Assembly: GCA_951406725.2 (NCBI GenBank)
Contig: OX597823.1
Span: forward strand, 43,586,001-43,650,000
Direction of reading: 5' to 3'
DNA: 64,000 nucleotides
Origin: Octopus vulgaris
Lineage: Eukaryota
Translations under genes and position numbers: made by a program
In this document: positions 12,119 through 58,255 of the stretch, one piece after another
How the letters are laid out: each line of letters begins with the position of its first letter
How positions within the stretch are numbered: position 1 is the stretch's first letter
The notes under the pieces: model-generated
The model's database searches: none
Told to the model about the DNA's origin: nothing
The model's input: the letters and a program-made list of their open reading frames with translations, nothing else

Positions 12119-12127
12119 TACTTACCT

Positions 12128-24200: not shown

Positions 24201-26467
24201 CCTTATCTATGTCAAGCTTACAGGTGACCATTTTATGATCACTGTAGCTGATCGGGTAAAACTGTGGACACTTAGCTATTTTTCTGTCTACTTTTCTAAT
24301 TAGTATTCTATCTAAATATGACCTGGAAGATCCGTCGCTGTTTGACCATGTCCACAATGGAACGTTCGGAAATTCCAGCCTATAAGGATCTGCTAGCTCA
24401 AAGCGGCTTAGCAGTTCCATGAAGCCACTGTTACCTTTTCTATCTGAACGCGAGCCAACACAATCTACATCCGCTTTGCAAATTGTGTTAAAGTCTCCTA
24501 GCACAACTAATGAATGCGAAGTACCAAGAAAGTTTTCTAGTTCACGAAAATAATCACTTTGCCCTGTACTGTTGGGTGCGTAAATTGCAACCAGTCTGAT
24601 AACTTTACCGTTACTGAACGTCAAATCCATGACGACCAGCCTACCTTCTGGATCTGCAAAAATTAACTTTTTCTCAGAAACCCGGTTTCTTTTTATTAGG
24701 ACCAACACCCCACTTCCGCCTGTAGGACTGCCAGGAGAGAAAAGACTCTCGTAGCCGTCAAACAGCGGGAGTAGACCTCTTGGCCCCTCTAACCGGTTTT
24801 CTGTAGCAACAATAACATCTAAATTACGCGACCTGATATCATGCAGGAAGCGACCTTGCTTCCAGCCTGCTCCCAGACCGCGCGCATTCAAACAACCAAC
24901 ATAAATGTAATCCATTACTTACCTTTATATCAGTGGTTCGGTTTTTCTTTTTCTTCTTTCTTTATCTCTTTTTCTGGGCCTCGTGGGGGAGTCTGACGTA
25001 GGCCCTCGAATATATATGGAGATGTTAGATCCATTCTGAGCGGGCCTACGTCATGAAAGAATTCGGATTTTATCCGCCCGTAATCCTTCCGGCCTATTCT
25101 GTAAACTATATAGTCATTCTTTTTTCCTATTTTTTCCACTTTGGCCATAGCTGCCAACACGTTCCCGAGTCTGTTGTTTGATGCCTTAACGGCCATATAT
25201 GAGTTCATCGACTCTCTTTTCTTCTTTTGGATCACTCTGGGAGGGGTGGTTTCCGTTTTTCTTTTTTTCTGGTGATTTTTGACCACCCCTCCTCATTGCT
25301 CTTTTTTTCCTCTGCCGCTGGTTCTGCTGCCTCTGTCACCTGCACACCTTCAGTCGTCCCTTCTGGGCCGCCCGGCGCTGCTTCTGGTGACACTTCATCT
25401 TCTTTTTCACCTGGCTGAGGTGCTTCCTGCGCTTTGGGTTGGGGTTGGCATTCCGCCCTTACATGACCCTTCTTGCCGCAGCCGAAGCACCTCGGCTTTC
25501 TGCCCTCTACGAAAACTGTTATTCTCTCTTCTTCACTTATTTTAAGGGATTCTGGAATCTCCTCCAGTGTTTGGATTTCTGCCTGAATGGCTATTACTAT
25601 CCGCTGCCCTTTCCAGAATTCCTCCTCCTCTACTGTGGCCTGGAGGATGTTTATTTTTTCCTCCAGACCTACCATGACTGCTGCCACCAGACATTCGGCA
25701 TCTGCCTCTGGCGGAATGTTATTAATCGTGATTTTCGATGTTCTTTTTCCTCTATACAAGGGGAGGAGAACAATGTTCTCCGCTTTTATTGGCTCCATCG
25801 ACAGTTTTTTTTTGCTATCTCCTCTGTTGTGAAACGCACCTCTACTGTGCCGTATCTCTTTCCTCTGTTGATGTATGTAATCTTGTCCATTAATGGTTTT
25901 AAACAATTCTCGATTTTTTTTCCTCAATTTTTTGTATCATTTTGGTTGTCGTATTAAAGGTCTTATAGATTATTCTTCTTTTTTCGATTTCTTCATGTTT
26001 TTGGGCGTTTGAGACCACTGTCACTTCCGTGCCCTCTTTTGTAACACAGTCCGCATATTTCTTTAAGTCATCTACGTTTATTTTTTTGATTTTCTTACCA
26101 GCTACTTCTGAGAATTTTTTTCGCTGGTGCTGGTGCAGGGGTTTCCTTTTTCTTTGGCGCCACCGCCTCTTTTTTCTTTGGCGACACCGCCGGAGATTCT
26201 TCTTCACTAGTCACGGGAGAATATGAGATGGGGGATTCCATCTCGAACAACTGGCTTAATAAGCCCTTGGTAAATCCAAGATAAATGGTATTTTTCCCCC
26301 ACGGAGGGGGGAACACCACCACGAAGTCCTCGCACGAAGGCTGACTTCAACAGTTGTACAGCAATGAACAAAGACAAATAGACACACAGTAGAAATTAAC
26401 GTAGAAAATATACACTAAGGAAAATTGTAATAAATCACTACACATGTAGATTGCGTTCCGCCATGTT
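21286..26467 (-). mobile_element. Full-length Tx1-clade element (type E1), ~5.2 kb; unit 4
   Basis: 5'UTR, ORF1 ~26241-24926, ORF2 24915-21530 and 3'UTR; several small indels. Confidence 0.95.
21530..24915 (-). pseudogene. ORF2 APE-RT-Zn finger, frameshifted
   Basis: ORFs 23233-24915, 22680-23375, 22495-22701, 22135-22491 and 21530-21871 are collinear with the intact ORF2. Confidence 0.92.
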
Positions 26468-28152
26468 GATTCTTTATTACCCACTAGGGGCTACATAGAG
26501 GGGGCGTTACAAACATTGGGGACATAGAACATCACAATTACATAGATATGAGTAAAATGAATTATGAAAATGATATGAAAGCGGTGCCAACGGCCCCATC
26601 CGCTAGCACCACTTACCTGTCCTTTTGTTTTCACTGTCACCTGAATGTTCATTCCCAATACGAAGACCATCCATATCCATTCTTACTCCGAAATACTCCT
26701 CCATATTTTCCACGAATTCATCGCTCATTCTTGTATCTTTCACCTCCCAATTCTCCCTTTCACACCTCAACACAAACTCTCCCTTTCACACCTCAACACA
26801 AACTCATCTATATTCTTCTTTTCCAGCACTGCATATCTGGTCTCACCTATTTCATACCATTTATACTCTTCCATTACCCTTTTAACTTCTTTCTGTTCAG
26901 TCATAATATAAATGTTCGGCCTGGGTTCGTTTTCAAACTCTTGTCTGTCTGTATTATTTTTTTTCTTTTGTTTTCTTGTTGGAGGGGAGCGGGTGGGTTC
27001 ACTGTCTGTAGGGATAGGGTGGGTCTCAGAGGGTGTGGGTGGTGTTGGGGTGGATTGGTGTTCTGTTATTTTCTTTTCCTCGTATTCTCCTCTTCCTCTT
27101 ATTCCCAGCTTCTTTCCATTTCTGTGAATTCTTCTTCTACCGTCTCCTTCTCCTCTGGTTTCTGCTTCTCTCTCTCTGGTTCGGAATCCATTTCTTTCAC
27201 TGGGGGAGGGCAGAAGGCTCTTATGTGACCCCTCAGGCCACACTTGTAACAACGTGGAGCTCTGCCCTCCACACACACTCTCATGATCACGTCTCCCAAT
27301 CTGATGCTTTCCGCCAGGTCCACCAGTACATCGTTCTCTGCCTGCACGTTCAGATCCACTGTTACGCCTCTCCAGCCCTCGGTCTTAACCGAGGCATGGA
27401 GAATATCCACTTCCTCCTCGTGGCCGCTAATCACAGCCGCCACTATCCACTCAGCCTCAACGTTTGGTGGCACTCCCTCGACCCTTACTCGTGTAATTTT
27501 TCTGTTTAAATACGTAGGCAAAAGTGTTACCTTTTCGGATTTCACCGCCTTCGCCGCCATCTTCCTTGCTGCATTCTCACTTTTAAAATGTACCACTACA
27601 GTACCATACTTTGATCCTCGAGTCAGAAAATTAAATTCCTCCTCCGTTCTTCTCAGCGCCTCCTCTATCCACTCCATGTTTACAACTTCTATCTTCTTCC
27701 TTTCGTTTGCGAACACCCTGTATATAATGGTCCTTTTATCATACCATTCCTTTCTCTTGGGTGTCGGTGCTAGTTCCACCTCACCGCTATCCTTTTTCAT
27801 ATATTTCTGGTAACTTGGCAGCTTGGCCAAGTCGACCCCTTTCTCTTCCGCCTTCTTGGTTACACCGGCATAGGTATAACCCAGCTTTCGATCCATCATT
27901 CTCACTGCCTGTTCCAGTTCCTCCTCAGACGTAGACAAGTCTGATAGGGAATCAAAGTCCATTTCCTTCTGTCTGACAGACCGCAAACGGCCGCCCGAAC
28001 AGAAAGTGTAACTCGCAGAACCAGTGCAACGCGAAACCGCATCAACGACGTTCAAAATTTCTACAACAACCACAATACTTTTTGTTCTTTTTTCTTTTTT
28101 AACCGAATTTTACAGAGTGCAAAAAAACACGACCGCCTGTGTGAAAATCTGA
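26468..28152 (-). mobile_element. ORF1-only element, family C; unit 3
   Basis: ORF1 from 27962 (MDFDSL...CYKCGLRGHIRAFC); frameshift and a 26-bp tandem duplication at 26753-26804; shared terminus. Confidence 0.9.
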
Positions 28153-29823
28153 TTTCTTTATTACCCACTAGGGGCTACATAGAGGGGACGTTACAAACAT
28201 TGGGGACATGGAACATCACAATTACATATATATGAGCAAAATGGAATATGAAAATGATATATGAGAGTGATACCGACGGCCCCATCCGCCAGCATCACTT
28301 ATCTGTCCTTCTTCACCCATTTCCAATTAGTATTCCTGTTTTATCTATCACAACATTCGTTTTTCTTTTAGCCCTCTCTATCCATTCCTCTTTCATTTCC
28401 ACTGACTTCCAACACACACCCTCTTCCTCAAACCTTGTCGCCAATATACCCGTATCATCACTATCCACAGCCGTGTAGCTCCAATCTTCGTGTTCGTACC
28501 ACTTGGTTAACACCAGTTTTTTAACGTTTTGTATGTCTTTCCCATGTATAACACATAAAAAATGGGTCTTGGGACTTTCTTTGCTCTGTGTGTCTGTTTT
28601 TATTTTTCTTGTAGGCGGGGAGTGGGTGGAATTACTGTTTGCAGGGGAAGGATGGGACTCCAAGGGTATGGGTGGTGTCGGGGTGGGTTGGGGCTTCGCA
28701 CAGTTTTTCTTTTTCTTTCTTTTTCTCTTTGTTCCCCCTTCTTTCCACTCTTGTTGCATCTCCTCTTCTTCTGTCGTTTCCCTCTCTGTTTGTTTCTGTT
28801 TATTTTCTTCCTCTCTTGAGGCTTCCTCAACGCTTTCCTTTTCTTTTTCCTTTGGTGGGGGAGGGCAGTAGGCTCTTATGTGACCCCTTTGGCCACACTT
28901 GTAGCACCTGGGCGCCCTACCCTCCACCCACACTCTCATAATAATATTTCCAGTTTTTATGCTGTCCGTAATCCTCTCTATAACATCCGCCTCCGTTTGA
29001 ATGTTCATAACTAGTGTGGCACCTCTCACGCCTTCATACTTCATAATGGCGTGGAGGATGTACACTTTATCTTCATTTCCTTTTATAACCGCAGCCGTTA
29101 TTAATTCGCCCTCTAGGTGTGGAGGTATTCCCTCCACCCTAATTCTGGTTGTCCGCCTATTCAGATACGAGGGTAACAAGTAAATCTTTTCTGTACTCAC
29201 CACCTTGGCTGCTACATTCCTGGCTGCTTTTTCACTTTTAAATTGCACCGTTACGGTTCCGTATTGTAATCCTTTTGTCATGTACACAATTTCCTCTCCT
29301 GTCTGCTTGAGAGCCTCTTCAATTGCTTCCATGTTAATTACTTCCATCTTTCTACCTCCATTCATAAATACTTTATATTTAATGGTTCTACGATGGAACC
29401 AGTCTCCGCACCCTACTGGATGCAGCAGCTCAACTTCACCGTTCTCGTCCTCCTTCACAAACTCCTGGAGGCCCGCCAACTTCGCCAGGTCTATCTCTCT
29501 TTCCGTTGACTTCTTCGTTACACCTGCGTAGGTGCCTTCCATCTTTTTCACCACCACCAACTCCTCCTCAGATGTCGATACTTCCGTCGAAATTTCAGAG
29601 TAAATTCTCCCTTCCATCTCCTCCGCTTGATGGAGGCGGCTCATAGTCGCCTCAGACCGAAAAACGGCCTCCCGAACCGAAAAAGTGCAACGCGCAGAAC
29701 CAGTGAGACGCGAAACCGCATCAACTATGTTCAAAACTTTACAACAACAACCATTCACTTTTTGTTCTTTTTTCTTTTTACCGAATTTTACAGAGCGCAA
29801 AAAAACACGACCGTTCAATCTGA
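28153..29823 (-). mobile_element. ORF1-only element, family B; unit 2
   Basis: One intact ORF plus the shared 3' module. Confidence 0.9.
28313..29644 (-). CDS. Intact gag-like ORF1 protein (443 aa from the ATG), RRM-like region plus CCHC knuckle
   Basis: MSRLHQ...YAGVT...YGTVTVQF...CYKCGQRGHIRAYC, a K/E-rich linker and a distinct C-terminal domain; uninterrupted. Confidence 0.85.
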   Translation of the reverse strand: MSRLHQAEEMEGRIYSEISTEVSTSEEELVVVKKMEGTYAGVTKKSTEREIDLAKLAGLQEFVKEDENGEVELLHPVGCGDWFHRRTIKYKVFMNGGRKMEVINMEAIEEALKQTGEEIVYMTKGLQYGTVTVQFKSEKAARNVAAKVVSTEKIYLLPSYLNRRTTRIRVEGIPPHLEGELITAAVIKGNEDKVYILHAIMKYEGVRGATLVMNIQTEADVIERITDSIKTGNIIMRVWVEGRAPRCYKCGQRGHIRAYCPPPPKEKEKESVEEASREEENKQKQTERETTEEEEMQQEWKEGGTKRKRKKKKNCAKPQPTPTPPIPLESHPSPANSNSTHSPPTRKIKTDTQSKESPKTHFLCVIHGKDIQNVKKLVLTKWYEHEDWSYTAVDSDDTGILATRFEEEGVCWKSVEMKEEWIERAKRKTNVVIDKTGILIGNG

Positions 29824-31566
29824 TTTCTTTATTACCCACTAAGGGGCTACGAAGAATGGCGGACATAACAAAACATGGGGACATAGAACATTATAATTAA
29901 ACTTTATGAAAATGAATTGTTAAACGAAAAAATGATAAAATGAAAGCGATACCAACGGCCCCGTCCGTCAGCATCACTTACCTGTCCTTTGTTTTTCATA
30001 GTCACTTGAATGTTCTTTGCCAATACGAATAAATTCCATATCCATTCTTACTCCGAAATACTCATTCATATTTTCCACGAATTCATCGCTCATTCTTATA
30101 TCTTTCACCTCCCAATTCTCCCTTTCACACCTCCCCATAAACTCACCTATGTTCTTCTTTTCAATCACAGCATACCTAGTCTCTCCAACATCATACCATT
30201 TATACTCTTCCATTAGACTTTTAACTTCCCTCTGTTCAGTCATAGTACAAATGTACGGCCTGGGTTCGATTTCAATCTCTTGTGTGTGTGTATTCTTTTT
30301 TTTTCTTTTGTTTTCTTGTTGGGGGGGAGCGGGTGGGTTCAATGTCTGCATGGATAGGGTGGGACTCAGAGGGTGTGGGTGGTTTTGGGGTAGATTGGAG
30401 TTCCATATTATTTTCTTTTCCACGTATTCTTCTCTTCCTCTTACTTCCAGCTTCCTTCCATTTCTGTGTATTCTCTTCCTCTGTTTCCTTCTCCTCTGGT
30501 TTCTGCTTCTCTCTCTCTGGTTCGGAATCCATTTCTTTCCCTGGGGGAGGGCAGAAGGCTCTTTTGTGACCCCTCAGGCCACACTTGTAACAACGTGGAG
30601 CCCTGCCCTCCACCCACACTCTCATGATCACGTCTCCCAGTCTGATGCTTTCCGTCAGGTCCACCAGCACCTCGGTCTCCGCCTGTACGCTCAGCTCCAC
30701 CGCTACGCCTCTCCAGCCCTCGGACCTAACCGAGGCATGGAGAACATCCACCTCGTCCTCGCGGCCGCCGATCACAGCCGCCACAATCCACTCTGCCTCC
30801 ACGCCCGGTGGCACTCCCTCCACCCTCACTCGTGCAATCCTCCTGTTTAAATACGTAGGTAATAGGGTTACCTTTTCTGACTTCACCGCCTTCGCCGCCA
30901 TCTTCCTCGCTGCAGACTCAGTTTTGAAATGCACAACTACGGTACCGTACTTGGATCCTCGAGTCAGAAAATTTATTTCCTCCTCAGTTCTTCGCAGGGC
31001 TTCCTCTATCCATTCCATGGTTACAACTTCTACCCTCTTCTTTTCGTTTGCGAACACCCTGTAAATAATGGTCCTCTTATCATACCATTCTTTTCTCCTG
31101 GGTGTCGGTGATAGTTCCACCTCACCGCTTTCCTTTTTCATGTATTTCTGGTAACTTGCCAACTTGGCCATGTCGACCCCTTTCTCTTCCGCCTTCTTGG
31201 TTACACCGGCATAGGTATAACCCAGCTTCTCTTCCAAGTTCCTTGCTGCCATTTCTAGCTCCTTCTCAGACGTAGGCAGGTCTGATAAAGACTCGAAAAC
31301 TCCAGCCTTTTCTTCCATCAGCTTCATTGCAATTGCCTGTTCCAGTTCCTCATCTGTCGTGGACAAGTCTGTTAGAGACTCATAGTCCATTTCCTTTCTG
31401 TCTGACAGACCGAAAACGGCCGCCAAAACAGAAAAAGTGTAACGCGCTGAACGAGCGAAAGGCGAAACCGCGTCAACGCCGTTCAGAATTTCCACAAAAA
31501 CAACAACGCTTTTTGTTCTTTTTTACCGAATTTTACAGAGCGCAAAAAAACACGACCGTTCAATCT
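29824..31566 (-). mobile_element. ORF1-only element, family C; unit 1 (5'-most of array 1)
   Basis: ORF1 31390-29974 (CYKCGLRGHKRAFC...RTGK) with one frameshift near 30420. Confidence 0.9.
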
Positions 31567-37800: not shown

Positions 37801-39806
37801 TTAAAGTCTCCTAGCACCACTAATGAATGCGAAGTACCGAGAAATTTTTCTAGATCACGAAAATAATCACTTTGCCCTGTATTGGGTGCGTAAATTGCAA
37901 CCAGTCTGATAACTTTACCGTTACTGAACGTCAAATCCATGACGACCAGCCTACCTTCTGGGTCTGAAAAAATTAACTTTTTCCCAAAAACCCGGTTTCT
38001 TTTTAATAGGACCAACACCCCACCCCCGCCTGTAGGACTGGCCGGAGAGAAAAAACTCTCGTAGCCGTCAAACAGCGGGAGTAGACCTCTTGGCCCCTTT
38101 AACCGGGTTTCTGTAGCAACAATAACATCAAATTACGCGACCTGATATCATTTAGGAAGCGACCTTGCTTCCCGCTTGATCCCAGGCCGCGCACATTTAA
38201 ACAACCAACATAAATGTAGTCCATAACTTACCTTATATCAGTGGTTCGACTTGTTCGACTGGTTCGCCTTGTTTTCCGTCGTCTTCTTCGCTTTTATTTT
38301 TTTCCTTGGCTCGTGGGGGAGTCCGACGCAGGCCCTCGTATAGGTATGGAGACATGTCCAGTCTCAGAGGGCCCACGTCGTGGAAGAATTCGGATTTTAT
38401 CCGCCTGTCGTCCTTCCGGCCTATTTTGTACACAATAGTCTTTCGTTTTCCTTACTCTCTCCACTTTGGCCATGGCTGCCAACACATTGACTAGTCTATT
38501 GTTGGTAGCCTTAATGGCCATAAATGAATTGGTTACTTCTTTTCTCTTCTTCTGGTTTTCTTCTTCTTGAGGGTGGTTTCTGTTTTCCGTTTTTTTTTGG
38601 TAACTTTTGACCACCCCTCCTCTTTTTCTTTTTCTTTTTCTGCACCACTCGATGATTTTTCTACCTCTTTGGTTTCCTCTGTTTTCTTTTCTGTTTCAGT
38701 TTCTTCCTTTTCCGACGGTGCTTCTACCTGCGGTTTAGGTTGACACTCTGCTCTTACGTGTCCCTTTTTTCCGCAGCCGAAGCACCTCGGCTTTCTTCCT
38801 TCTACGAAAACCAACACTCTCTCCTCCTCATCGAGCCTCAGCACCTCTGGTATTTCCTCCAGTGTCTGGACCTCCGCTTGGATTGCCATAGTGATGCTCT
38901 GGCCCTGCCAAAACCCCTCCTCCTCCACTGTAGCTTGGAGGATATTGATTTTGTCCTTCAGGCCTAGCATCACTGCCGCCACCAGGCATGTGGCGTCCGC
39001 CTCTGGGGGAATATTCCTCATAACTATTTTTGAGGTCCTTCTGCCTCTGTACAAGGGTAGGACTATGTTCCCTGCTTTTTGTGGTTCGGTAGATAGCCTC
39101 TTTGCTATTTCCTCGGTCCTAAACCTCACCTCTACCGTTCCGAACCTTCTTCCTCTGTTTATATAAGTTACGTCCTTTCTAATTGCCTTCAGGCACTCTT
39201 CTATTTTATTTTCTTCTACTTTTTGGATACTTTTTGTTGTTGTACAGTATGTTTTATAAATTATCCTTTTCTTCTCTATCTCTTCTTTTTTTTCAACATC
39301 TGCTTTTACTGCTATCTCATTTCCTTCTTTTTTCAGAAGGACTTCGTATTTTTCCAGATTATCTATATTTATACTTTTTTGTTTACGCCCTGCAACTTCC
39401 GCGAACTTCTTCGCTGGGGCCTTTTTTTCTGGCGTTACCGCCGGGTTTTTTTCCGGCGTCACCGCCGGTGAGCTTTCTTCACCTGAGGCTTGAGAGCTTC
39501 CATCACCTGAGATTGGTGAATAAGAGATGGGGAATTCCATTTCGAGCTTTTTCAGTTGGCATTCACCGCCTTCCGAAGACATTTTGGCTTTGCAAGCCGT
39601 TTGTAGAAAAATTTTTTTTTAATTGTTCCACACACAATAATTCCCCCGCGAGGGGGGAACTAAGTACGCAGCCTTCGCACGAAGGCCACTAACAGTCTTA
39701 TAGAAAAGACACCAAAACAACAGTGATTAAGTTAACAAAGTAGCAGTAATTTACTAACCAAGCAGGCACTCGTATTCAGTCGGTCAAAGTTCAGTTTTTG
39801 AGTATC
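34836..39806 (-). mobile_element. Near full-length Tx1 element (type E3); array 2 unit 12
   Basis: ORF1 39582/39540-38233 and ORF2 38224-35083, with frameshifts and a ~0.3 kb deletion near 35488; shared terminus. Confidence 0.94.
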
Positions 39807-40054: not shown

Positions 40055-43000
40055 TTATGTGGTGTCATCCATTCTCAACTTCCGTGCTACATCCTTCCAT
40101 CGTTCTTCATACACTCTTTTAGTCAGGCATTTTCTCTCCAGCCCTATCTTCCTTTTCAGGTGGTAGATGAAGTAATTCATCAACCCAGGGCCGGATATGA
40201 ACTTGCCTGACCGTGTACCTTTCATTCTCGTCTTCCATATCACCTCTTTCGCAATTGCTACCACAACGAGAAAACAATTCTTACCTTCTTTCGCGAGGAA
40301 ATCTGGTGGGTCAATTTTTTTAATACACTCAGTCGACAGCTGTACTCTTCGTGTGCTTGACAACAGCTGTTCGGCATAAACCCACACCTCAGACACGACC
40401 GAACAATGAACAATAGCGTGCGGGACGGTTTCCCTATCCCGCCCGCATCTTGGACACATCGGACTGTCCCGGCCACCGTGCCTTGCGAGTTTATCCCGAA
40501 CAGGTAGAGCTCCTCTGTAGCATTGCCATGCCAGAGACTTCTGGAAGTTGTCCAGTGTCTTCGGCTCGAACGTACGTCGGAACAGACTGGCCAGCTGATT
40601 ATCGTCGAGACCCAGGGTTTCCCCCAAGGTGTCTTCACATTTCGCCTCTACCAACCCTCTATAGAAGAATGTGGTGGAACCCCCACCGCAGGCGTTGCCC
40701 GAGCGACGGAATAGCAGGAGAGCCTTGCGACACTCCGTATGCCATGTACCGGGTTTCGATCTACGATTCGGCCAGGTTTTCCGTCCACCGAAACTAGTGA
40801 ACTTGGGAAACATCAGTTTTGCTAACGGAGACCACACCCGTTCACCATCCAGGTAGAGCCACAGATGTCTTAACCTCAGCGCATGTCTGCGCATCATCAG
40901 CCAAGGCATCCCTAGCCCACCCTTTAACGGTTGTTGACAGCAAGTAGAGCGTTTCACAAGTGGTTTCCCGCCCTTCCACAGGAAGTAGAAGAGCTGTCTT
41001 TCCAACTTGGTCAACCACGAATCGGGGCATGGAACGACGGAAAGGCGGTAGGTGATAACCGATGCGATAAACACATTGGCCACCTCCGCCCTCCCTTTCA
41101 AGGATAGCCACCGCCAAGACCAGGTCTTGGCTACTGCAGCCACCTTGCTCGTTACCTCGCCCCAATTCTTCTCTATTTGGAGGTCTGGACCGAACCAGAC
41201 CCCTAGCAGTTTAATCGGACCCTCCGTCCAACGTCCCACGACGCTGTCAGGAGGCATCGACTTGCCTCTCCAGGTGCCGAGTTGCAAGCCGACTGACTTT
41301 TCGCGATTAACTTTTGCTCCTGTCACCGTCTCGTAATCCTCTATGGCCTTGCCTACTTTACATAGGTGGTCCATTTCGGTCACGATGATGGTGATGTCGT
41401 CCGCGTACGCTGACACTGATTTTCCATTACCTGGCTGTCTCGGGATGCCGCTCAGTTTTCGCAGTAATGGCTCAAGAGCCATCACGTACAAAAGCGGGGA
41501 GAGCGGACACCCTTGACGAACCGAGCGTTTGATTTTGAACGGCTTCGACAAGAAGCCGTTCACCCGAACTACCGAGTCGATGTTGTCGTAAATTTGGATA
41601 ATCCACCTGAGGAAGCCAAGGCTCAGCCCGAACTGTGCCAGGGCAGACACCAGGTAACGATGGTCGACCCTATCAAAAGCTTTGGATTGGTCTAAATGGA
41701 CCAGTGCCCCACCCTTGCCAGAATCACTATTAAACCCCTCTATAGTGTACCGCATTAGATGGAGATTATCCTGAATGGTTCTGCCCGGAACGGCACATGT
41801 CTGTGCCTCCCCGATCAGACCATCCGCGACACGCGCCAATCTTTTCGATAACACTTTGGCCAAAATCTTCAACTCTGTGTTTAGCAGAGTGATGGGCCTG
41901 AAATTATCAATGCACTCCCCCTTGCTCGGGTCCTTTCTGACGAGAGTCACCACTCCCCGGCGCACAGATCTGGGTATAAGCCCGTTCTGCTGCCAGTTCG
42001 CATAGACCTCCGCCAGTAGGTGCCCGAACAAGTCTGGCATACTCTTGTATAACTCGTAGGGTAGACCATCCAAACCCGGCGCCTTGCCCGCGCCGCAGTC
42101 CGCCATTGCCTCCACCACCTCCTCAGGCGTGATTGGCCCTTCACAGCCCTCCGCATCTCGCCCCGATAAGCGCGGCAGCCCGTCGAGTAGGTCCGTAAAG
42201 GCCCTCCTCCTATCCAGCCCGCCGCACTCACCGAAAAGCTGAGCGAAGTGCTCCTGAAAGGCCTCACACATCTCCCCGGGTTCGTTTATCAACTCACCTT
42301 GTTGGTTCTTCAAAGATCGAATCGTGGCGTCGTTGCCATTCCGGGCTTCCACCACTCGGGCCCATCTCACGGCGTTGATTCCTTCACATCCCATATGACG
42401 GATTCTAGCCCTGACAATGCAGCCCATGTGTTTGGCCTCGAGGTGCTGGTTTAACACCAGTCTCTTGGACGCCACCTGAGCCGCAGAGCCAGTTTTCATG
42501 GCTTCCTCTAATTCCTTAACTAGAGTAGTTTCCCTTCTAGCCTCTCTAGACACTACTCCTATGCTATATCTAATAGACTCAAACTTGATGGCTCGTTTGA
42601 GGGCGTACCACCATTTGTTATTAATGATGGCACCAGACAGTGCCCTCTGAATTATGGTCCTAATCCGGTCTCTGTACTCCTTAATCGCCAAAAGGGACGT
42701 ATTAAGTTTCCAGTAACCGGATCCTCTATTTCTAACCTTATCTATGTCAAGCTTACAAGTGACCATTTTATGATCACTGTAGCTTATCGGGTGAAACTGT
42801 GGACACTTAGCTATTTTACTGTCTACCTTTCTAATTAGAATTCTATCTATGTATGACCTGGAAGATCCGTCGCTGTTTGACCATGTCCACAATGGAGCGT
42901 TCGGAAATTCCAACCTATAAGGATCTGCTAGCTCAAAGCGGCTTAGCAGTTCCAGGAAGCCTGAGTTACCTTTTCTATCTGCATTCGAGCCAACACAATC

Positions 43001-43453
43001 TACATCCGCTTTGCAAATTGTGTTAAAGTCTCCTAGCACAACTAATGAATGCGAAGTACCGAGAAAGTTTTCTAGATCACGAAAATAATCACTTTGCCCT
43101 TTTATACTGTTGGGTGCGTAAATTGCAACCAGTCTGATAACTTTACCGTTACTGAACGTCAAATCCATGACGACCAGCCTACCTTCTGGGTCTGAAAAAA
43201 TTAACTTTTTCTCAAAAACCCGGTTTCTTTTTAGTAGGACCAACACCCCACCCCCGCCTGTAGGACTGGCCGGAGAGACAAAACTCTCGTAGCCGTCAAA
43301 CAGTGGGAGTAGACCTCTTGGCCCCTTTAACCGGGTTTCTGTAGCAACAATAACATCCAAATTGCGCGACCTGATATCATTAAGGAAGCGACCTTGCTTC
43401 CCGCTTGATCCCAGGCCGCGCACATTTAAACAACCAACATAAATGTAGTCCAT
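40055..43453 (-). CDS. Intact L1/Tx1-clade ORF2p, 1132 aa: APE endonuclease, reverse transcriptase and C-terminal CCHC Zn finger
   Basis: LNVRG, ATET, GDFN, IDRI, SDH, WKLN, APGLDG, RPITLLN, DQSKAFD, QGCPLSP, YADD, GGLG and CPRCGRDRETVPHAIVHC, with no interruption. Confidence 0.96.
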   Translation of the reverse strand: MDYIYVGCLNVRGLGSSGKQGRFLNDIRSRNLDVIVATETRLKGPRGLLPLFDGYESFVSPASPTGGGGVLVLLKRNRVFEKKLIFSDPEGRLVVMDLTFSNGKVIRLVAIYAPNSIKGQSDYFRDLENFLGTSHSLVVLGDFNTICKADVDCVGSNADRKGNSGFLELLSRFELADPYRLEFPNAPLWTWSNSDGSSRSYIDRILIRKVDSKIAKCPQFHPISYSDHKMVTCKLDIDKVRNRGSGYWKLNTSLLAIKEYRDRIRTIIQRALSGAIINNKWWYALKRAIKFESIRYSIGVVSREARRETTLVKELEEAMKTGSAAQVASKRLVLNQHLEAKHMGCIVRARIRHMGCEGINAVRWARVVEARNGNDATIRSLKNQQGELINEPGEMCEAFQEHFAQLFGECGGLDRRRAFTDLLDGLPRLSGRDAEGCEGPITPEEVVEAMADCGAGKAPGLDGLPYELYKSMPDLFGHLLAEVYANWQQNGLIPRSVRRGVVTLVRKDPSKGECIDNFRPITLLNTELKILAKVLSKRLARVADGLIGEAQTCAVPGRTIQDNLHLMRYTIEGFNSDSGKGGALVHLDQSKAFDRVDHRYLVSALAQFGLSLGFLRWIIQIYDNIDSVVRVNGFLSKPFKIKRSVRQGCPLSPLLYVMALEPLLRKLSGIPRQPGNGKSVSAYADDITIIVTEMDHLCKVGKAIEDYETVTGAKVNREKSVGLQLGTWRGKSMPPDSVVGRWTEGPIKLLGVWFGPDLQIEKNWGEVTSKVAAVAKTWSWRWLSLKGRAEVANVFIASVITYRLSVVPCPDSWLTKLERQLFYFLWKGGKPLVKRSTCCQQPLKGGLGMPWLMMRRHALRLRHLWLYLDGERVWSPLAKLMFPKFTSFGGRKTWPNRRSKPGTWHTECRKALLLFRRSGNACGGGSTTFFYRGLVEAKCEDTLGETLGLDDNQLASLFRRTFEPKTLDNFQKSLAWQCYRGALPVRDKLARHGGRDSPMCPRCGRDRETVPHAIVHCSVVSEVWVYAEQLLSSTRRVQLSTECIKKIDPPDFLAKEGKNCFLVVVAIAKEVIWKTRMKGTRSGKFISGPGLMNYFIYHLKRKIGLERKCLTKRVYEERWKDVARKLRMDDTT

Positions 43454-43461
43454 CACTTACC

Positions 43462-44565
43462 TTATATCAGTGGTTTGGTTTGTTCGACTGGTTCGCCTTG
43501 TTCTTCTTCGCTTTTATTTTTTTCCCTGGCTCGTGGGGGAGTCCGACGCAGGCCCTCGTATAGATATGGAGACATGTCCAGTCTCAGAGGGCCCACGTCG
43601 TGGAAGAATTCGGATTTTATCCTCCTGTAGTCCTTCCGGCCTATTTTGTATATGATAAAGTCTTTCATTTTTCTTATTCGTTCCACCTTGGCCATGGCTG
43701 CCAACACATTGACTAGTCTGTTGTTGGTAGCCTTAATGGCCATAAATGAAGAAGTAACATCTTTTCTTTTCTTCAGGTTTTCTTCTTCTTGAGGGGTGGT
43801 TTCTGTTTTCCGTTTTTTTTTGGTAACTTTAGACCACCCCTCCTCTTTTTCGTTTTCTTTTTCCTTTTCTGCACCACTTGCTGTTTTTTCCACCTCTTTG
43901 GTTTCCTCTGTTTTCTTTTTCTTCTCCGCTTCTTCTTTTTCCGACGGTGCTTCTACCTGCGGTTTAGGTTGACACTCCGCTCTTACGTGTCCCTTTTTTC
44001 CGCAGCCGAAGCACCTCGGTTTTCTTCCTTCTACAAATACCAATACTCTCTCCTCCTCATCGAGCCTCAGCACCTCTGGTATTTCCTCCAGTGTCTGGGC
44101 CTCCGCTTGTATTGCCATTGTGATAATCTGGCCCTGCCAAAATCCCTCCTCCTCCACTGTAGCTTGGAGGATATTGATTTTTTCCTTCAGGCCCAGCATC
44201 ACTGCCGCCACCAGGCATGAGGCGTCCGCCTCTGGGGGAATATTCCTCATCACTATTTTTGAAGTCCTTCTTCCTCTGTACAAGGGTAGAAGGACTATGT
44301 TTCCTGCTTTTTGAGGTTCTGTACATAGCCTCTTTGCTATTTCTTCGGTCCTGAACCTCACTTCTACCGTTCCGAACCGTCTTCCTCTGTTTATATATGT
44401 GATGTCCTTTCTAATTGCCTTCAGGCACTCCTCTATTTTACACTCTTCCACTTTTTGTATACTTTTTGTTATCATGCTGTATGTCTTGTAAATTATTCTT
44501 TTCTTTTCAATCTCTTCCTTTTTTTCCACATCTTTTTTAACTGCAATTTCATTTCCTTCTTTTTT
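43462..44565 (-). CDS. ORF1p (partial, N-terminus missing)
   Basis: FGTVEVRF and CFGCGKKGHVRAEC. The first ~60 aa of the track ORF come from the inverted arm and are spurious. Confidence 0.8.
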   Translation of the reverse strand, partial: KKEGNEIAVKKDVEKKEEIEKKRIIYKTYSMITKSIQKVEECKIEECLKAIRKDITYINRGRRFGTVEVRFRTEEIAKRLCTEPQKAGNIVLLPLYRGRRTSKIVMRNIPPEADASCLVAAVMLGLKEKINILQATVEEEGFWQGQIITMAIQAEAQTLEEIPEVLRLDEEERVLVFVEGRKPRCFGCGKKGHVRAECQPKPQVEAPSEKEEAEKKKKTEETKEVEKTASGAEKEKENEKEEGWSKVTKKKRKTETTPQEEENLKKRKDVTSSFMAIKATNNRLVNVLAAMAKVERIRKMKDFIIYKIGRKDYRRIKSEFFHDVGPLRLDMSPYLYEGLRRTPPRAREKNKSEEEQGEPVEQTKPLI

Positions 44566-47500
44566 AGAGGAGATAAAATTGCAGTTAAAAGATAATGAAA
44601 AAGGAAAATTGAAAAGAATATTTACCAAGACATAAATTATTCTACCCTTGTACAGAGGAAGAAGGACATCAAGAAATAGAAGTAATGAATATTCCCCCAG
44701 AGACGCCTCATGCCTGGTGGCGGCTGAACTGAAAGAAAAAATCACATCCTCCAAGCTACAGTGGAGGAGGAGGGATTTTGGCAGAGATCATAACAATGGC
44801 TATACAAGCAGAGGCCCAGACTCTGAAGAAATACCAGAGGTGCTGAGGCTAGATGAGGAGGATAGTTCTAGTATTTAGAAGGAAGAAAACCGAGGTGCTT
44901 CGGCTGCGGAAAAAGGCACGTAAGAGCAGTGTCAACCGAAACCGCAGACAGAAGCACCGTCGGAGAAAGAAGAAACGGAGGAAAAAAAGGAAACCAAAGA
45001 GGTGGAAAAATCTACAGAGTTGCAAGAAAAAAAAAAAAAAAAAAGAGGAGGGGTGGTCACAGTTACCCAAAAAAAACGGAAGGCGGCTGAAACCACCCCT
45101 CAAGAAGAGAAAACCTGAAAAAGGAAAGAGGTTACTTCTTCATTTATGGCCATTAAGGCTACCAACAACAGACTTGTCAATGTGTTGGCAGCCATGGCCA
45201 AGGTGGAATAAGGAAAAAGACTTCATCATATATAAATAGGCCGGAAGGACTACAGGAGGATAAAATCCAGTTCTTCCACGACCCCTCTGAGACTGGACAT
45301 GTCTCCATATCTACGAGGGCCTACGTCGGACTCCCCCAGAGCCAAAGAAATAAAAACGTGAAGAAGAAGGCGAAAGGCTGTGTCGCCAAACTGATCGATA
45401 TAAGGTAAGTGATGAACTACATTTATGTTGGTTGTTTAAATGTGCGCGGCCTGGGATCAAGCGGGAAGCAAGGTCGCTTCCTTAATGATATCTTCAGGTC
45501 GCGCAATTTGGATGTTAATTGTTTACAGAAACCCGGTTAAAGGAGGGCCAAGAGTACTCCCACTGTTTGACGGCTAGAGTTTTTTCTCTCCTGGCAGTCC
45601 TGCAGGCGGAGAGTGGGGTGTTGGTCCTACAAAAGAGAAACCGGGTTTTTTGAGAAAGTTGGGCAATTTTTCCAGAAATTAGGCTGGTCGTCATGGATTT
45701 GACGTTCAGTAACGGTAAAGTTATCAGACTGGTTGCAATTTACGCACCCTGCAGTATAATGGGCAAAGTGATTATTATCGTGATCTAGAGAACTTTCTCG
45801 GTACTTCGCATTCAATAGTTGTGCTAGGAGACTTTAACACAATTTGCAAAGCGTGGATGTAGATTGTGTTGGCTCGAATGGATAGAAAAGGTAACTCAGG
45901 CTTCCTTGCCAAGCCGCTTGAGCTAGCAGATCCTTATAGGTTGGAATTTCCACGCTCCATTGTGGACATGGTCAAACAGCGACGGATCTTCCAGGTCATA
46001 GATAGAATTCTAATTAGAAAGGTAGACAGTAAAATAGCTAAGCGTCCACAGTTTTCATCAGCTACAGTGATCATAAAATGGTCACCTGTAAGCTTGACAT
46101 AGATAAGGTTAGTAAAGAGAGGATCAGTTACACTTCACCTCCTTTTGGCAGATTAAGGAGTACAGACCGGATTAGGACCATAATTCAGAGGGCGCTGTCT
46201 GGTGCCATCATTAATAACAAATGGTGGTACGCCCTCAAACGAGCCATCAAGTTTGAGTCTATTAGATATAGCATAGGAGTAGTGTCTAGAGAGGCTAGAA
46301 GGGTAACTACTCTAGTTAAGGAATTAGAGGAAGCCATGAAAACTGGCTCTGCGGCTCAGGTGGCGTCCAAGAGACTGGTGTTAAACCAGCACCTCGAGGC
46401 CAAACACATGGGCTGCATTGTCAGGGCTAGAATCCGTCATATGGGATGTGAAGGAATCAACGCCGTGAGATGGGCCCCGAGTGGTGGAAGCCTGGAATGG
46501 CAACGATGCCACGATTCGATCTTTGAAGAACCAACAAGGTGAGTTGATGGACGAACCCGAGGAGATGTGTGAGGCCTTTCAGGAGCACTTCGCTCAGCTT
46601 TTCGGTGAGTGCGGCGGACTGGATAGGAGGAGGGCCTTTACGGACCTACTCGACGGGCTGCCGCGCCTATCATCGGGGCGAGATGCGGAGGCTGTGAAGG
46701 GCCAATCACGCCTGAGGAGGTGGTGGAGGGCAATGGCGGACTGCGGCGACGGGCAAGGCGCCGGGTTTGGATGGTCTACCCTACGAGTTATATAAGAATA
46801 TGCCAGACTTGTTCGGGCACCTACTGGCGGAAGTCTATGCGAACTGGCAGCAGAACGGGTTGATACCCAGATCTGTGCGCCGGGGAGTGGTGACTCTCGT
46901 CAGAAAGGACCCGAGCAAGGGGGAGTGCATTGATAATTTCAGGCCCATCACTCTGCTAAACACAGAGTTGAAGATTTTGGCCAAAGTGTTATCGAAAAGA
47001 TTGGCGCGTGTCGCGGATGGTCTGATCGGGGAGGCACAGACATGTGCCGTTCCGGGCAGAACCATTCAGGATAATCTCCATCTAATGCGGTACACTATAG
47101 AGGGGGTTTAATAGTGATTCTGGCAAGGGTGGGGCACTGGTCCATTTAGACCAATCCAAAGCTTTTTGATAGGGTCGACCATCGTTACCTGGTGTCTGCT
47201 CTGGCACAGTTCGGGACTGGGCCTTGGCTTCCTCAGGTGGATTATCCAAATTTACGACAACATCGACTCGGTAGTTCTGGTGAACGGCTTCTTGTCGAAG
47301 CCGTTCAAAATCAAACGCTCGGTTCGTCAAGGGTGTCCGCTCTCCCCGCTTTTGTACGTGATGGCTCTTGAGCCATTACTGCGAAAACTGAGCGGCATCC
47401 CTGAGACAGCCAGGTAATGGAAAATCAGTGTCAGCGTACGCGGACGACATCACCATCATCGTGACCGAAATGGACCACCTATGTAAAGTAGGCAAGGCCA

Positions 47501-49046: not shown

Positions 49047-52000
49047 CCTGATAGGACGTCACTTTGACTTATTCATTGATTCTCAAAAACGAAACGTGAG
49101 TTTTTTGTCTGAAATAGTGTTGTTGAAAGTTAGTAGTTTATTGTTGCTGTGTTAATATTGTTATTTTGTGTCTTTTCAATAAGACGGTGAGTGGCCTTCG
49201 CGCGAAGGTTGTGTACGTAGTTCCCCCCCCGCGGGGGAATTATTGTGTGCCTTCGTGTACGAAACACATCCCAAAAAAAAACAAAAAAAAAAAAAAAAAA
49301 CAAAAAATATTTTCTACTAACGGCTGCAAAGCCAGAATGTCTTTGGAAGGCAGTGAATACAAACTGGAAGGAAAATTCGAAATGGATTTCCCCATTACCT
49401 ATTCACCCATTTCAGGTGATGAAGAATCTCAAACCTCGGGTGAGAGAAGCACGCCGGCGGTGACACCGGAAAAAGAATCGGCGGTAACGCCAGAACAAAA
49501 GGCCCCAACAAAGAAGTTTGCGGAAGTTGTTGGACGCAAACAGAAAGATATAGATATAGAAAACCTAGAGAAATATGAAGACCTTCTAAAGAAAGAAGGA
49601 AATGAAATTGCAGTGAAAAAAGATATGGAAAAAAAGGAAGAGATAGAAAAGAAAAGAATTATATACAAGACATACAGCACGACTACAAAAAGCATACAAA
49701 AAGTGGAAGAATGCAAAATAGAGGAGTGCCTGAAGACAATCAGAAAAGATATCACTTACATCAATAGAGGAAGACGGTTCGGAACAGTAGAAGTGAGGTT
49801 CAGAACCGAAGAAATAGCTAAGAAGCTATCCACAGAACCTCAGAAAGCGGGAAATCTAGTCCTTCTACCCTTGTACAAAGGAAGAAGGACTTCAAAGATA
49901 GTAATGAGAAATATTCCCCCAGAGGCAGACGCCTCATGCCTGGTGGCGGCAGTGATGCTGGGCCTGAAAGAAAAAATCAACATCCTCCAAGCTACAGTGG
50001 AGGAGGAGGGATTTTGGCAGGGCCAGATCATAACAATGGCTATACAAGCAGAGGCCCAGACTCCTGGAAGAAATACCAGAGGTGCTGAGGCTAGATGAGG
50101 AGGAGCGAGTTCTAGTATTTGTAGAAGGAAGAAAACCGAGGTGCTTCGGCTGCGGAAAGAAGGGGCACGTGAGAGCGGAGTGTCAACCGAAACCGCAGGC
50201 AGAAGCACCGTCGGAGAAAGAAGAAACGGAGGAAAAAAAGGAAACCAAAGAGGTGGAAAAAGCTGCAGAAAAGGAAAAAGAAAACGAAAAGAGGAGGGGT
50301 GGTCTAAAGTTACCAAAAAAACGGAAAACTGAAACCACCCCTCAAGAAGAAGAAAACCTAAAGAAAAGGAAAGAGGTTACTTCTTCATTTATGGCCATTA
50401 AGGCTACTAACAACAGACTTGTCAATGTGTTGGCAGCCATGGCCAAGGTGGAACGTATAAGGAAGATGAAAGACTTCATCATATATAAAATAGGCCGGAA
50501 GGACTACAGGAGGATAAAATCCGAGTTCTTCCACGACGTGGGCCCTCTGAGACTGGACATGTCTCCATATCTATGACGAGGGCCTACGTCGGACTCCCCC
50601 ACGAGCCAAAGAAAAAAATGAAGAAGAAGGCGAAACTGCCGAAAAAGCCAAACTACCGATATAAGGTAAGTGATGAACTACATTTATGTTGGTTGTTTAA
50701 ATGTGCGCGGCCTGGGATCAAGCGGGAAGCAAGGTCGCTTCCTTAATGATATCAGGTCGCGCAATTTGGATGTTATTGTTGCTACAGAAACCCGGTTAAA
50801 GGGGCCAAGAGATCTACTCCCACTGTTTGACGGCTACGAGAGTTTTTTCTCTCCTGGCAGTCCTGCAGGCGGGAGTGGGGTGTTGGTCCTACTAAAAAGA
50901 AACCGGGTTTTTGAGAAAAAGTTAATTTTTTCAGACCCAGAAGGTAGGCTGGTCGTCATGGATTTGACGTTCAGTAACGGTAAAGTTATCAGACTGGCTG
51001 CAATTTACGCACCCTGCAGTAATAATGGGCAAAGTGATTATTATCGTGATCTAGAGAACTTTCTCGGTACTTCGCATTCAATAGTTATGCTAGGAGACTT
51101 TAACACAATTTGCAAAGCGGATGTAGATTGTGTTGGCTCGAATGATAGAAAAGGTAACCCAGGCTTCCTGGAACTGCTAAGCCGCTTTGAGCTAGCAGAT
51201 CCTTATAGGTTGGAATTTCCGAACGCTCCATTGTGGACATGGTCAAACAGCGACGGATCTTCCAGGTCATACATAGATAGAATTCTAATTAGAAAGGTAG
51301 ACAGTAAAATAGCTAAGCGTCCACAGTTTTACCCGATCAGCTACAGTGATCATAAAATGGTCACCTGTAAGCTTGACATAGATAAGGTTAGAAAGAGAGG
51401 ATCCGGTTACTGGAAACTTAATACGTCCCTTTTGGCGATTAAGGAGTACAGAGACCGGATTAGGACCATAATTCAGAGGGCGCTGTCTGGTACCATCATT
51501 AATAACAAATGGTGGTACGCCCTCAAACGAGCCATCAAGTTTGAGTCTATTAGATATAGCATAGGAGTAGTGTCTAGAGAGGCTAGAAGGGAAACTACTC
51601 TAGTTAAGGAATTAGAGGAAGCCATGAAAACTGGCTCTGCGGCTCAGGTGGCGTCCAAGAGACTGGTGTTAAACCAGCACCTCGAGGCCAAACACATGGG
51701 CTGCATTGTCAGGGCTAGAATCCGTCATATGGGATGTGAAGGAATCAACGCCGTGAGATGGGCCCGAGTGGTGGAAGCCCGGAATGGCAACGATGCCACG
51801 ATTCGATCTTTGAAGAACCAACAAGGTGAGTTGATAGACGAACCCGAGGAGATGTGTGAGGCCTTTCAGGAGCACTTCGCTCAGCTTTTCGGTGAGTGCG
51901 GCGGACTGGATAGGAGGAGGGCCTTTACGGACCTACTCGACGGGCTGCCGCGCCTATCGGGGCGAGATGCGGAGGGCTGTGAAGGGCCAATCACGCCTGA

Positions 52001-54345
52001 GGAGGTGGTGGAGGCAATGGCGGACTGCGGCGCGGGCAAGGCGCCGGGTTTGGATGGTCTACCCTACGAGTTATATAAGAATATGCCAGACTTGTTCGGG
52101 CACCTACTGGCGGAAGTCTATGCGAACTGGCAGCAGAACGGGTTGATACCCAGATCTGTGCGCCGGGGAGTGGTGACTCTCGTCAGAAAGGACCCGAGCA
52201 AGGGGGAGTGCATTGATAATTTCAGGCCCATCACTCTGCTAAACACAGAGTTGAAGATTTTGGCCAAAGTGTTATCGAAAAGATTGGCGCGTGTCGCGGA
52301 TGGTCTGATCGGGGAGGCACAGACATGTGCCGTTCCGGGCAGAACCATTCAGGATAATCTCCATCTAATGCGGTACACTATAGAGGGGTTTAATAGTGAT
52401 TCTGGCAAGGGTGGGGCACTGGTCCATTTAGACCAATCCAAAGCTTTTGATAGGGTCGACCATCGTTACCTGGTGTCTGCTCTGGCACAGTTCGGACTGG
52501 GCCTTGGCTTCCTCAGGTGGATTATCCAAATTTACGACAACATCGACTCGGTAGTTCGGGTGAACGGCTTCTTGTCGAAGCCGTTCAAAATCAAACGCTC
52601 GGTTCGTCAAGGGTGTCCGCTCTCCCCGCTTTTGTACGTGATGGCTCTTGAGCCATTACTGCGAAAACTGAGCGGCATCCCGAGACAGCCAGGTAATGGA
52701 AAATCAGTGTCAGCGTACGCGGACGACATCACCATCATCGTGACCGAAATGGACCACCTATGTAAAGTAGGCAAGGCCATAGAGGATTACGAGACGGTGA
52801 CAGGAGCAAAAGTTAATCGCGAAAAGTCAGTCGGCTTGCAACTCGGCACCTGGAGAGGCAAGTCGATGCCTCCTGACAGCGTCGTGGGACGTTGGACGGA
52901 GGGTCCGATTAAACTGCTAGGGGTCTGGTTCGGTCCAGACCTCCAAATAGAGAAGAATTGGGGCGAGGTAACGAGCAAGGTGGCTGCAGTAGCCAAGACC
53001 TGGTCTAGGCGGTGGCTATCCCTTGAAAGGGAGGGCGGAGGTGGCCAATGTGTTTATCGCATCGGTTATCATCTACCGCCTTTCCGTCGTTCCATGCCCT
53101 GATTCGTGGTTGACCAAGTTGGAAAGACAGCTCTTCTACTTCCTTGTGGAAGGGCAGGAAACCACTTGTGAAACGCTCTACTTGCTGTCAACAACCGTTA
53201 AAGGGTGGGCTAGGGATGCCTTGGCTGATGATGCGCAGACATGCGCTGAGGTTAAGACATCTGTGGCTCTACCTGGATGGTGAACGGGTGTGGTCTTCTC
53301 CGTTAGCAAAACTGATGTTTCCCAAGTTCACTAGTTTCGGTGGATGGGAAACCTGGTTGAATCGTAGATCGAAACTCGGTACATGGTATACGGAGTGTCG
53401 AAAGGCCCTCCTGCTATTCCGGTCGCTCGGGCAACGCTCGTGGGGGTTCCTGCGGTGGGGTTCCACCACATTCTTCTATAGAGGGTTGGTGGTAGAGGCG
53501 GAATGTGAAGACACCTTGGGAGAAACCCTGGGTCTCGACGATAATCAGCTGGCTAGTCTGTTCCGACGTACGTTCGAGCCGAAGACTCTGGACAACTCCA
53601 GAAGTCTCTGACATGGCAATGCTACAGAGGAGCTCTACCTGTTCGGGATAAACTCGCAAGGCACGGTGGCCAAGACAGTCCGATGTGTCCAAGATGCGGG
53701 CGGGATAGGGAAACCGTCCAGCACGCTGTTGTTCATTGTTCGGACGTGTCTGAGGTGTGGGTTTATGCCGAACAGCTGTTGTCAAGCACACGAAGAGTAC
53801 AGCTGTCGACTGGAGTGTATTAAAAAAATTGACCCACCAGATTTCCTCGCGAAAGAAGGTAAGACTTGTTTTCTCGTTGTGGTAGCAATTGCGAAGGAGG
53901 TGATATGGAAGACGAGAATGAGGTAACACGGTCAGGCAAGTTCATATCCGGCCCTGGGTTGATGAATTACTTCATCTTACCACCTGAAAAGGAAGATAGG
54001 GCTGAAAGACCTGAAAATGCCTGACTAAAAGAGTGTATGAAGAACGATGGAAGGATGTAGCACGGAAGTTGAGAATGAATGACACCACATAAATGTAGAT
54101 CAAAACGAAACCAAAAGTATCAGTGGTGAGGCGGGGCTCGTGGGGTCCGAGCTGAACCCGCCCCCACTCCACCTGTAGTGTCTTCCGGTCTGTTTTTTTC
54201 ATTCGATTTTTATAATTTTTGCAATTTTTGTAAATTTTTGAAATTTTTAAACTCATTCTTTTGTAACCTCATACGTGAATCTGACCCCACATCAGGTTGT
54301 ATTGTCCCCTCTTTTGTTGGCCCCTTGTGGGTAATAATAAAACAC
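49047..54345 (+). mobile_element. Full-length Tx1 element (type E4); unit 14
   Basis: 5'UTR, ORF1 49337/49382-50664, ORF2 50673-54092 and 3'UTR. Confidence 0.95.
50673..54092 (+). pseudogene. ORF2, open through the EN and RT domains, frameshifted after ~53020
   Basis: 810-aa ORF with YADD, followed by collinear fragments. Confidence 0.9.
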
Positions 54346-54361
54346 CCGATAGGACGTTACT

Positions 54362-54412
54362 CCCCGATTGTATTGTCCCCTCTATGTGGCCCCTAGTGGG
54401 TAATAAAGAAAT
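54362..54412 (+). mobile_element. 51-bp 5'-truncated insertion of a family A 3' end; unit 15
   Basis: Matches 56143-56193 with one mismatch; flanked by perfect ccgataggacgttact repeats. Confidence 0.88.
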
Positions 54413-58190: not shown

Positions 58191-58255
58191 TCGCCTCTTT
58201 CAATTTAGGTTTTCATTTTTCATGTTTTTATTTGTATTTCATTGTTATGTTTATA

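Follow-up and report, generated by a model that had tools for sequence, protein, structure and literature searches.

LINE RNAs need to remain unspliced and to avoid premature polyadenylation. Splice donors within them are thought to be harmful (PMC5860796), and positive use of the splicing machinery has so far been shown for one LTR element and for retroviruses. In the Arabidopsis Ty1/Copia element EVD, U1 at a donor located at the end of GAG blocks premature termination (PMC5580714). At the major splice donor of foamy virus, U1 suppresses polyadenylation without splicing, and RNA structure turns the block off at the 3′ copy (PMC3694450). A donor in the 5′UTR of human L1, G98U99, is kept for a RUNX3 site and gives rise to the spliced retrocopies described as SpIREs, at about 2% (PMC5860796).

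Here we describe a sequence of the 5′ splice-site type that one L1/Tx1-type clade in the genome of Octopus vulgaris conserves where ORF1 ends, and that apparently goes unspliced. Like the EVD donor, it matches U1 and ends the structural gene upstream of the enzyme genes, and a role in full-length RNA is proposed. However, EVD belongs to the LTR elements, has a genuine intron and makes plenty of a spliced GAG RNA that terminates early, whereas the octopus element is a non-LTR element in which we found no conserved acceptor and saw no spliced product. The stem-masked site that precedes AATAAA in the ORF1-only B and C units resembles the foamy virus 3′ copy, although the latter belongs to a retroviral LTR whose donor is also spliced and whose mechanism is experimental, while here we infer it. 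With human L1 the locus shares a long-conserved, rarely used LINE donor, possibly sequestered by structure as has been suggested there, but the human donor lies in the 5′UTR and ours at the end of ORF1, where no spliced retrocopies were found. The short ORF1-ORF2 junction, with structure near the ORF2 start, recalls the UAAUG coupling of SART1 (PMC3894237), except that the overlap is not conserved here and the spacer measures 8-50 nt. Finally, HAL1, the ORF1-only telomeric Jockey elements (PMC5753468, PMC13534243) and the Tx1 clade (PMC4494074) resemble the octopus elements in having ORF1-only units with the 3′ tail of an autonomous partner, head-to-tail arrays and, possibly, a target preference; the available text of these three papers does not mention a retained donor, and our B and C units are old lineages rather than derivatives of the present E.

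In the full-text literature (subscription journals, Repbase and supplements lying outside its scope) we came across no paper describing a conserved donor between ORF1 and ORF2 of a LINE. The class of mechanism is already familiar; a non-LTR element that used it would be new. Selection has kept this donor at the ORF1 end although silent sites in the clade are close to saturated, which suggests that a non-LTR element puts the splicing machinery to positive use, and the natural series of free, stem-masked, lost and second (ORF2-stop) sites offers tests of how U1 position and accessibility act in 3′-end choice.

Array organization and its donor-like sites

In the window, that is, the whole stretch of 64,000 nt that was analysed (contig C10 of a 2.8-Gb assembly), non-LTR retroelements form an array that extends from about 9 to 58 kb. 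Its E units (about 5.3 kb) encode ORF1 and an ORF2 with endonuclease, reverse transcriptase and zf-RVT domains (Pfam). The A, B and C units (1.7-1.8 kb) have ORF1 alone and a terminal TGTCCC...GTGGGTAATAAA tail in common with E, an ORF1-only organization with the 3′ tail of an autonomous partner that is HAL1-like. An ORF2 with APE, RT and a C-terminal zinc motif, along with an ORF1 zinc knuckle, places the elements in the L1/Tx1 group, the knuckle (Pfam) scoring near or just above the cut-off and in A and B only; the Tx1 label itself is that of the initial annotation, as the matches obtained here include no named Tx1 reference. The best PDB match of the E ORF2 is human LINE-1 ORF2p, which is the nearest solved structure to the intact 1132-aa ORF2 of the window (40055..43453, minus strand; APE endonuclease, reverse transcriptase and zf-RVT). 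Young E arrays occur on other contigs with a period of 5.27-5.29 kb, and the order C...C-B-(A)-E recurs at unlinked loci (C1, C2, C3 and C4 of genome G000). The two halves of the array face opposite directions, and a degenerate inverted E copy (44640-49063, plus strand) adjoins a 5′-truncated E (minus strand) head to head (44640-45100 and 39807-49063). In the E 3′UTR (54090-54260; 39900-40040) a long hairpin rich in GC comes before repeats of AATTTTTG, presumably similar to Sm-binding sites, and A, B and C have unrelated hairpins in the equivalent position. Past the array end, at 58222-59600, lies a separate degenerate repeat with coding remnants.

The initial annotation had placed AG/GTAAGT between the ORF1 stop and the ORF2 ATG of the E copies, and this was confirmed, with correct coordinates, at all seven junctions (7/7). 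The full-length E element that bears the named site (49063..54344, plus strand) has both ORF1 and ORF2 broken; its E1 junction (50662..50675, plus strand) consists of TAA at 50662-50664, AG/GTAAGT with GT at 50666-50667, one free base and ATG at 50673-50675. The other E1 junction motifs are at 43455..43462 (minus strand), where the motif precedes the intact 1132-aa ORF2, and at 45403..45410 (plus strand). At 38226..38233 (minus strand) the E motif is followed by T and then ATG, so that no TGATG is formed. The E2 motifs, all on the minus strand, are at 24917..24924 (TAA AG/GTAAGT A ATG), 15329..15336 and 12120..12127, the last with a mutated ORF2 ATG. The E ORF1 stop lies 4 or 5 nt upstream of the GT. 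Altogether the window has 12 copies of AGGTAAGT, where 2.3 would be expected (maximum 6 in 100 shuffles), including two matches absent from the initial annotation, one at 21754 within ORF2 and a chance one at 59248, outside the array in the degenerate repeat; this excess reflects repeat copy number only, and the evidence of constraint comes from other lineages. Genome-wide, a pattern with a free spacer gave 152 E junctions, although it missed most young E1 arrays, which have G before the ATG; among the 100 listed the motif was perfect in 92, and the base preceding the ATG was A in 72, C in 15, T in 7 and G in 6.

The B/C coordinates were likewise correct, including the mutated copy at 28297, but the statement that the motif ends ORF1 in these units holds for two of the four (GGT AAG TGA), since the copy at 26611 lacks a stop and ORF1 stops 13 nt earlier at 28297. 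These 3′ modules are all on the minus strand. In one B unit (19740..19779) CAG/GTAAGT closes ORF1, positions +3 to +17 lie in a 15-bp hairpin and AATAAA follows after about 130 nt; in one C unit (29944..29983) the donor closes the ORF1 frame. The second C module (26579..26618) reads GTAAGTGG, without a stop and with a compensatory G-C pair in the stem, and the second B module (28265..28304) has the mutated donor AG/ATAAGT 13 nt past the ORF1 stop. We counted 313 B/C modules genome-wide; of the 100 listed, 96 have a perfect motif. From a B/C donor to AATAAA the distance is about 130-150 nt. In family A, no donor was found at the ORF end in any of the three window units (17871..19660, minus strand; 54386-56193 and 56230-58007, plus strand). 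Identity of the motif within a family, whether E or B/C, is expected from descent and proves nothing alone.

The initial annotation had also suggested that B/C arose by loss of ORF2. This is plausible in general, as in HAL1-like elements, though not with the E of today as the source. Between B and C the ORF1 cores share 56-59% identity, between B/C and E 33-40%, and a tree of these cores gave no supported sister relation of B/C and E (basal bootstrap 23-39). The low identity and the weak basal support indicate old HAL1-like lineages and not deletions of the present E. Nor were B/C made by splicing at this donor, since they retain the GT. The B/C motif frame matches the ancestral ORF1 end; its context (GGACAG/GTAAGTG, hairpin, U-rich tract and tail) also resembles the ORF2-stop donor of a sister lineage, and the motif could equally derive from that second donor.

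Conservation across lineages and match to U1

To sample other lineages, a motif-blind pattern on the ORF2 start (GCLNVRGL) gave 616 matches, and among the 100 listed we took 40 non-E loci chosen for varied codons. GTAAG lies at most 60 nt before the ORF2 ATG at 32 of these 40 loci and at none of them (0/40) on the antisense strand of the same 60-nt window. When clustered at 85% identity, with E as one cluster, 15 of 19 clusters have GTAAG and two more have GTAGG; six control windows upstream reached 0-2 of 19, and one window within ORF2 reached 5/19. A second, independent pattern gave 26 loci, 14 of them with the endonuclease, and GTAAG was present in 11/14 (one being an E copy; 10/13 for the non-E loci only) compared with 0-1/14 in control windows. 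The motif is thus kept in related families, where its non-conservation had been named in the initial annotation as evidence against a role.

Comparison of 29 lineages gave 55% identity at four-fold silent sites and 30-33% in the spacer flanks. The distance from motif to ATG varies from 7 to 49 nt. The ORF1 stop ranges from -9 to +5 relative to the GT, being either at +5 or 4-9 nt upstream; a stop at +5 reads xGT AAG TAG, where the preceding codon is TGT, AGT or GGT (Cys, Ser or Gly). Since frame, stop and ATG spacing all vary, the constraint is on nucleotides and not on protein, stop codon or start context. Metagenomes supplied 45 clusters of distant relatives, at 27-37% protein identity, from the 51 loci of 80 that could be used (29 were dropped because no endonuclease start was found or because they were too near a contig end); the motif occurs in three of these clusters, which is background and indicates a clade-specific gain. 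We consider it very likely that the motif has some function.

The U1 genes of this genome start with ATACTTACCTG, to which the motif is complementary, with an invariant GT. At positions that were not used in choosing the motif, 24 lineages have -2A in 16, -1G in 12, +6T in 19 and +7A in 15, whereas at 83 other GTAAG sites in the same elements the corresponding counts are 28, 22, 10 and 23; as the lineages are related, p-values for these positions are optimistic. The +6T is kept in 11 of 12 lineages without -1G compared with 9 of 15, which as a sign of exon/intron compensation is suggestive only (p = 0.075, hand-made table). In the same 24 lineages, A[AT]TAAA hexamers number 55 sense and 23 antisense in the 1.2 kb upstream (the A-rich ORF1), and 21 sense and 24 antisense in the 1.2 kb downstream (early ORF2).

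Further donor-like sites occur within these elements. In the L096 lineage a second perfect CAG/GTAAGT overlaps the stop of ORF2, with AATAAA about 230 nt further on; it is kept although the bases that follow it diverge. We also observed a perfect ORF2-stop donor in L097, L105, L106, L113, L115-L117, L120, L122, L126, L128, L129 and L131-L133. E and L099 have a strong donor-like site within ORF2, about 460 nt upstream of the poly(A) signal; in the window it is found at 21754..21761 (minus strand, E-G-K codons), with the homologous GAAGGTAAG at 40280-40288, 35308-35316, 48560-48568 and 53855-53863. No strong second donor was found in the L098 lineage.

RNA structure and evidence on splicing

Behind four different ORF1 tails, 25 distinct B/C modules hardly vary between -8 and +12, and positions +3 to +17 are paired in the stem in 23-25 of the 25, with several one-sided changes and one two-sided change. 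In the E lineage, a hairpin is predicted at 50650..50696 (plus strand, z -1.6), in which the ORF1 end and part of the donor would pair with the ORF2 start and the ATG would lie near the loop. It is predicted in 19/19 E junction variants, is modest (z -0.9 to -1.6) and is absent from other lineages; a junction of the L114 type is predicted to be open. The predicted cost of opening the site in E and B/C is 5.6-8.3 kcal/mol, compared with -11 to -13 for the U1 duplex. A clade-wide hairpin was considered as the cause of conservation and rejected, as none was found in 25 sequences (z -2.0 to +2.1). According to these models, structure may mask the donor in E and B/C, and it does not explain the clade-wide conservation.

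Our evidence on RNA comes from assembled contigs of runs guessed to be RNA, which may hold DNA or intronic RNA. At the E2 donor, the single crossing contig is unspliced in 4/4 runs from two studies, and neither a joint nor a loose end was found there in any row of the four runs. In a C-B-E stretch, contigs span the C and E donors, and the rows listed, 15 of 37 joints and 24 of 364 loose ends, include none that falls on any of the three donors. Spliced retrocopies were also sought in the genome. All 67 copies at the L096 ORF1-end donor are unspliced (67/67), and at the L096 ORF2-end donor 108 copies are intact and one is a point mutant, with no spliced retrocopy. The B/C search gave six matches against five with a control pattern (counts only), and 22 candidate spliced E retrocopies, from a pattern that forced the exon G, were rejected, four being point mutants of E and 18 lacking an E ORF1 upstream. 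The GAACCACTG ends of an unrelated abundant repeat (L135-L139, L144-L156), which we take to be inverted-repeat-like, mimic the E ORF1 end in pattern searches. The initial annotation's proposal that ORF1 is spliced to downstream units is not supported, as no joint or loose end was found at the donor and no spliced retrocopy at four donors. Still, a spliced form with A at the third base would escape the exclusion patterns, rare forms are lost from contigs and a spliced RNA without the 3′ hairpin might not be copied, so that low-level splicing would be compatible with these results.

We saw no acceptor conserved across lineages; AG candidates are present in some lineages only, and E, A and the L096 lineage have an AG after a pyrimidine-rich stretch close to their 3′ tail. 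The ORF1 stop lies downstream of the donor in many lineages, and splicing would therefore delete it. Two candidate introns were rejected: a 130-nt intron in the B/C 3′UTR, whose candidate TAG varies to TCG and TGG among copies; and a micro-intron in the spacer that would fuse ORF1 to ORF2, since AG precedes the ATG in few lineages only and a U-rich spacer equally characterises distant relatives that lack the motif. A high-copy family (L098, L103, L114) combines a 674-aa ORF1 with a pyrimidine spacer of 44-49 nt and forms tandem arrays of 5.9 kb. In two of these, L103 and L114, an AG stands two bases before the ATG, and a putative intron of 42-46 nt, an unlikely size, would join ORF1 and ORF2 in frame.

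Possible roles of the conserved site

The explanation that we prefer, tentatively and with somewhat less than even confidence, is that the motif is an orphan docking site for the U1 snRNP that guards the bicistronic RNA against premature cleavage and polyadenylation. U1 would bind the donor co-transcriptionally, and the donor would stay unspliced for want of a usable acceptor, helped by partial hairpin masking in E and B/C. Bound U1 would suppress nearby cryptic poly(A) sites, letting the polymerase reach the end of ORF2 and the 3′ tail on which copying depends. For units with ORF1 alone the donor would have become superfluous, in keeping with its absence from A and its burial in the B/C stem. 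Several observations argue against this role. The poly(A) hexamers are upstream of the donor with no excess downstream, and U1 protection is mostly described downstream of a U1 site. The donor is predicted to be partly paired in E and B/C, the near-invariant B/C block does not look like a dispensable site, and the L096 ORF2-stop donor is not explained by protection of ORF2. Distant relatives do without the motif, as only 3/45 carry it, and in human L1 a donor that is conserved but seldom used is retained because it contains a transcription-factor site (PMC5860796). Protection from HUSH was considered and rejected, since that protection is reported to be independent of the 5′ splice site (PMC8770142). 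In a wider form, which we hold to be more doubtful still, a LINE clade could have domesticated the host U1 snRNP as an anti-terminator, with unspliced orphan 5′ splice sites at ORF ends and access tuned by hairpins balancing ORF1-only, full-length and read-through RNAs in mixed arrays.

A minor or tissue-specific donor, yielding an ORF1-only mRNA by removal of ORF2 in the manner of copia/EVD or joining ORF1 to downstream units, is in our opinion unlikely. The consensus donor and the pyrimidine-preceded AG near the 3′ tail of E, A and L096 are what such splicing would use, and neither the absence of retrocopies (spliced forms losing the 3′ hairpin might escape copying) nor that of rare variants lost from contigs disproves it; yet the E2 donor showed no joint or loose end in 4/4 runs, the retrocopy searches were negative at four donors, the donor is upstream of the ORF1 stop in many lineages and no acceptor conserved across them was seen. 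We judge it improbable that GTAAG(T) is bound by another factor, such as a host protein, ORF1p or a promoter factor, with an incidental likeness to a splice site. The RUNX3 site of human L1 (PMC5860796) is a precedent; moreover, +3 is A in 24/24 lineages, never GTGAG (in part a result of motif selection), and -1 is G in only 12/24. Against it, the profile from -3 to +7 tracks U1 complementarity at unselected positions, and the motif is strand-specific (0/40 antisense).

A little less probable again is that U1 binds for another outcome, namely nuclear retention, elongation or read-through past the element's own poly(A) signal to reach a following unit or the target. This would suit the position of the donors shortly before AATAAA (about 130-150 nt in B/C, about 230 nt at the L096 ORF2 stop), the 3′ junctions, none of which (0/63 distinct) has a run of at least eight A, and the contigs linking a unit end to the next unit start. 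The runs that join units were guessed to be RNA, however, and may contain DNA or intronic RNA, varied junctions and a target-site duplication suggest that units were added one at a time, and masking by a stem, as in B/C, is the arrangement that turns polyadenylation on in the foamy virus 3′ LTR (PMC3694450). Tuning of ORF2 translation by stop-start coupling of the SART1 type (UAAUG/UGAUG; PMC3894237) is very improbable. TGATG does occur in E1 and TAATG in some E2 copies, and the predicted E hairpin keeps the ATG near its loop, but all four bases occur before the ATG, the true E ORF1 stop is 4-5 nt before the GT, the ATG is up to 49 nt away in other lineages and the motif is present where no ORF follows (B/C and the L096 ORF2 stop). 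The TGATG-type reinitiation of ORF2 put forward in the initial annotation is therefore not supported, the overlap not being conserved, with a variable base before the ATG and a spacing of 7-49 nt. That the motif is a functionless by-product of stop codons and common descent seems least credible of all. Although GTAAG contains TAA, and identity within families (92/100 E and 96/100 B/C listed) is expected from descent, this TAA is out of frame in intact ORF1s, whose stop is at +5 or upstream, and the core is kept where its flanks are randomised, so that the lineage comparisons largely refute it.

The elements stop about 5 nt past AATAAA, and no poly(A) run was found at the 3′ end in any of 63 distinct junctions from the window and loci L001-L156. 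Thirteen of these 63 adjoin ACAT[GA], five adjoin [CT]GATAGG and many adjoin B/C 5′ ends, as counted without a control set. A 14-nt duplication, CCGATAGGACGTTA, flanks a 5′-truncated A-type tail at 54330-54420, just past an E 3′ end, and as a target-site duplication it indicates the insertion of a single unit. The 5′ end of the next unit frequently carries ACATGGCGG, which we assume to resemble a YY1 site. L096-type elements end in AATAAAG plus about 12 nt matching a very common short repeat, into which most of them have inserted, with the cut within a GGTAAG/TAGC site.
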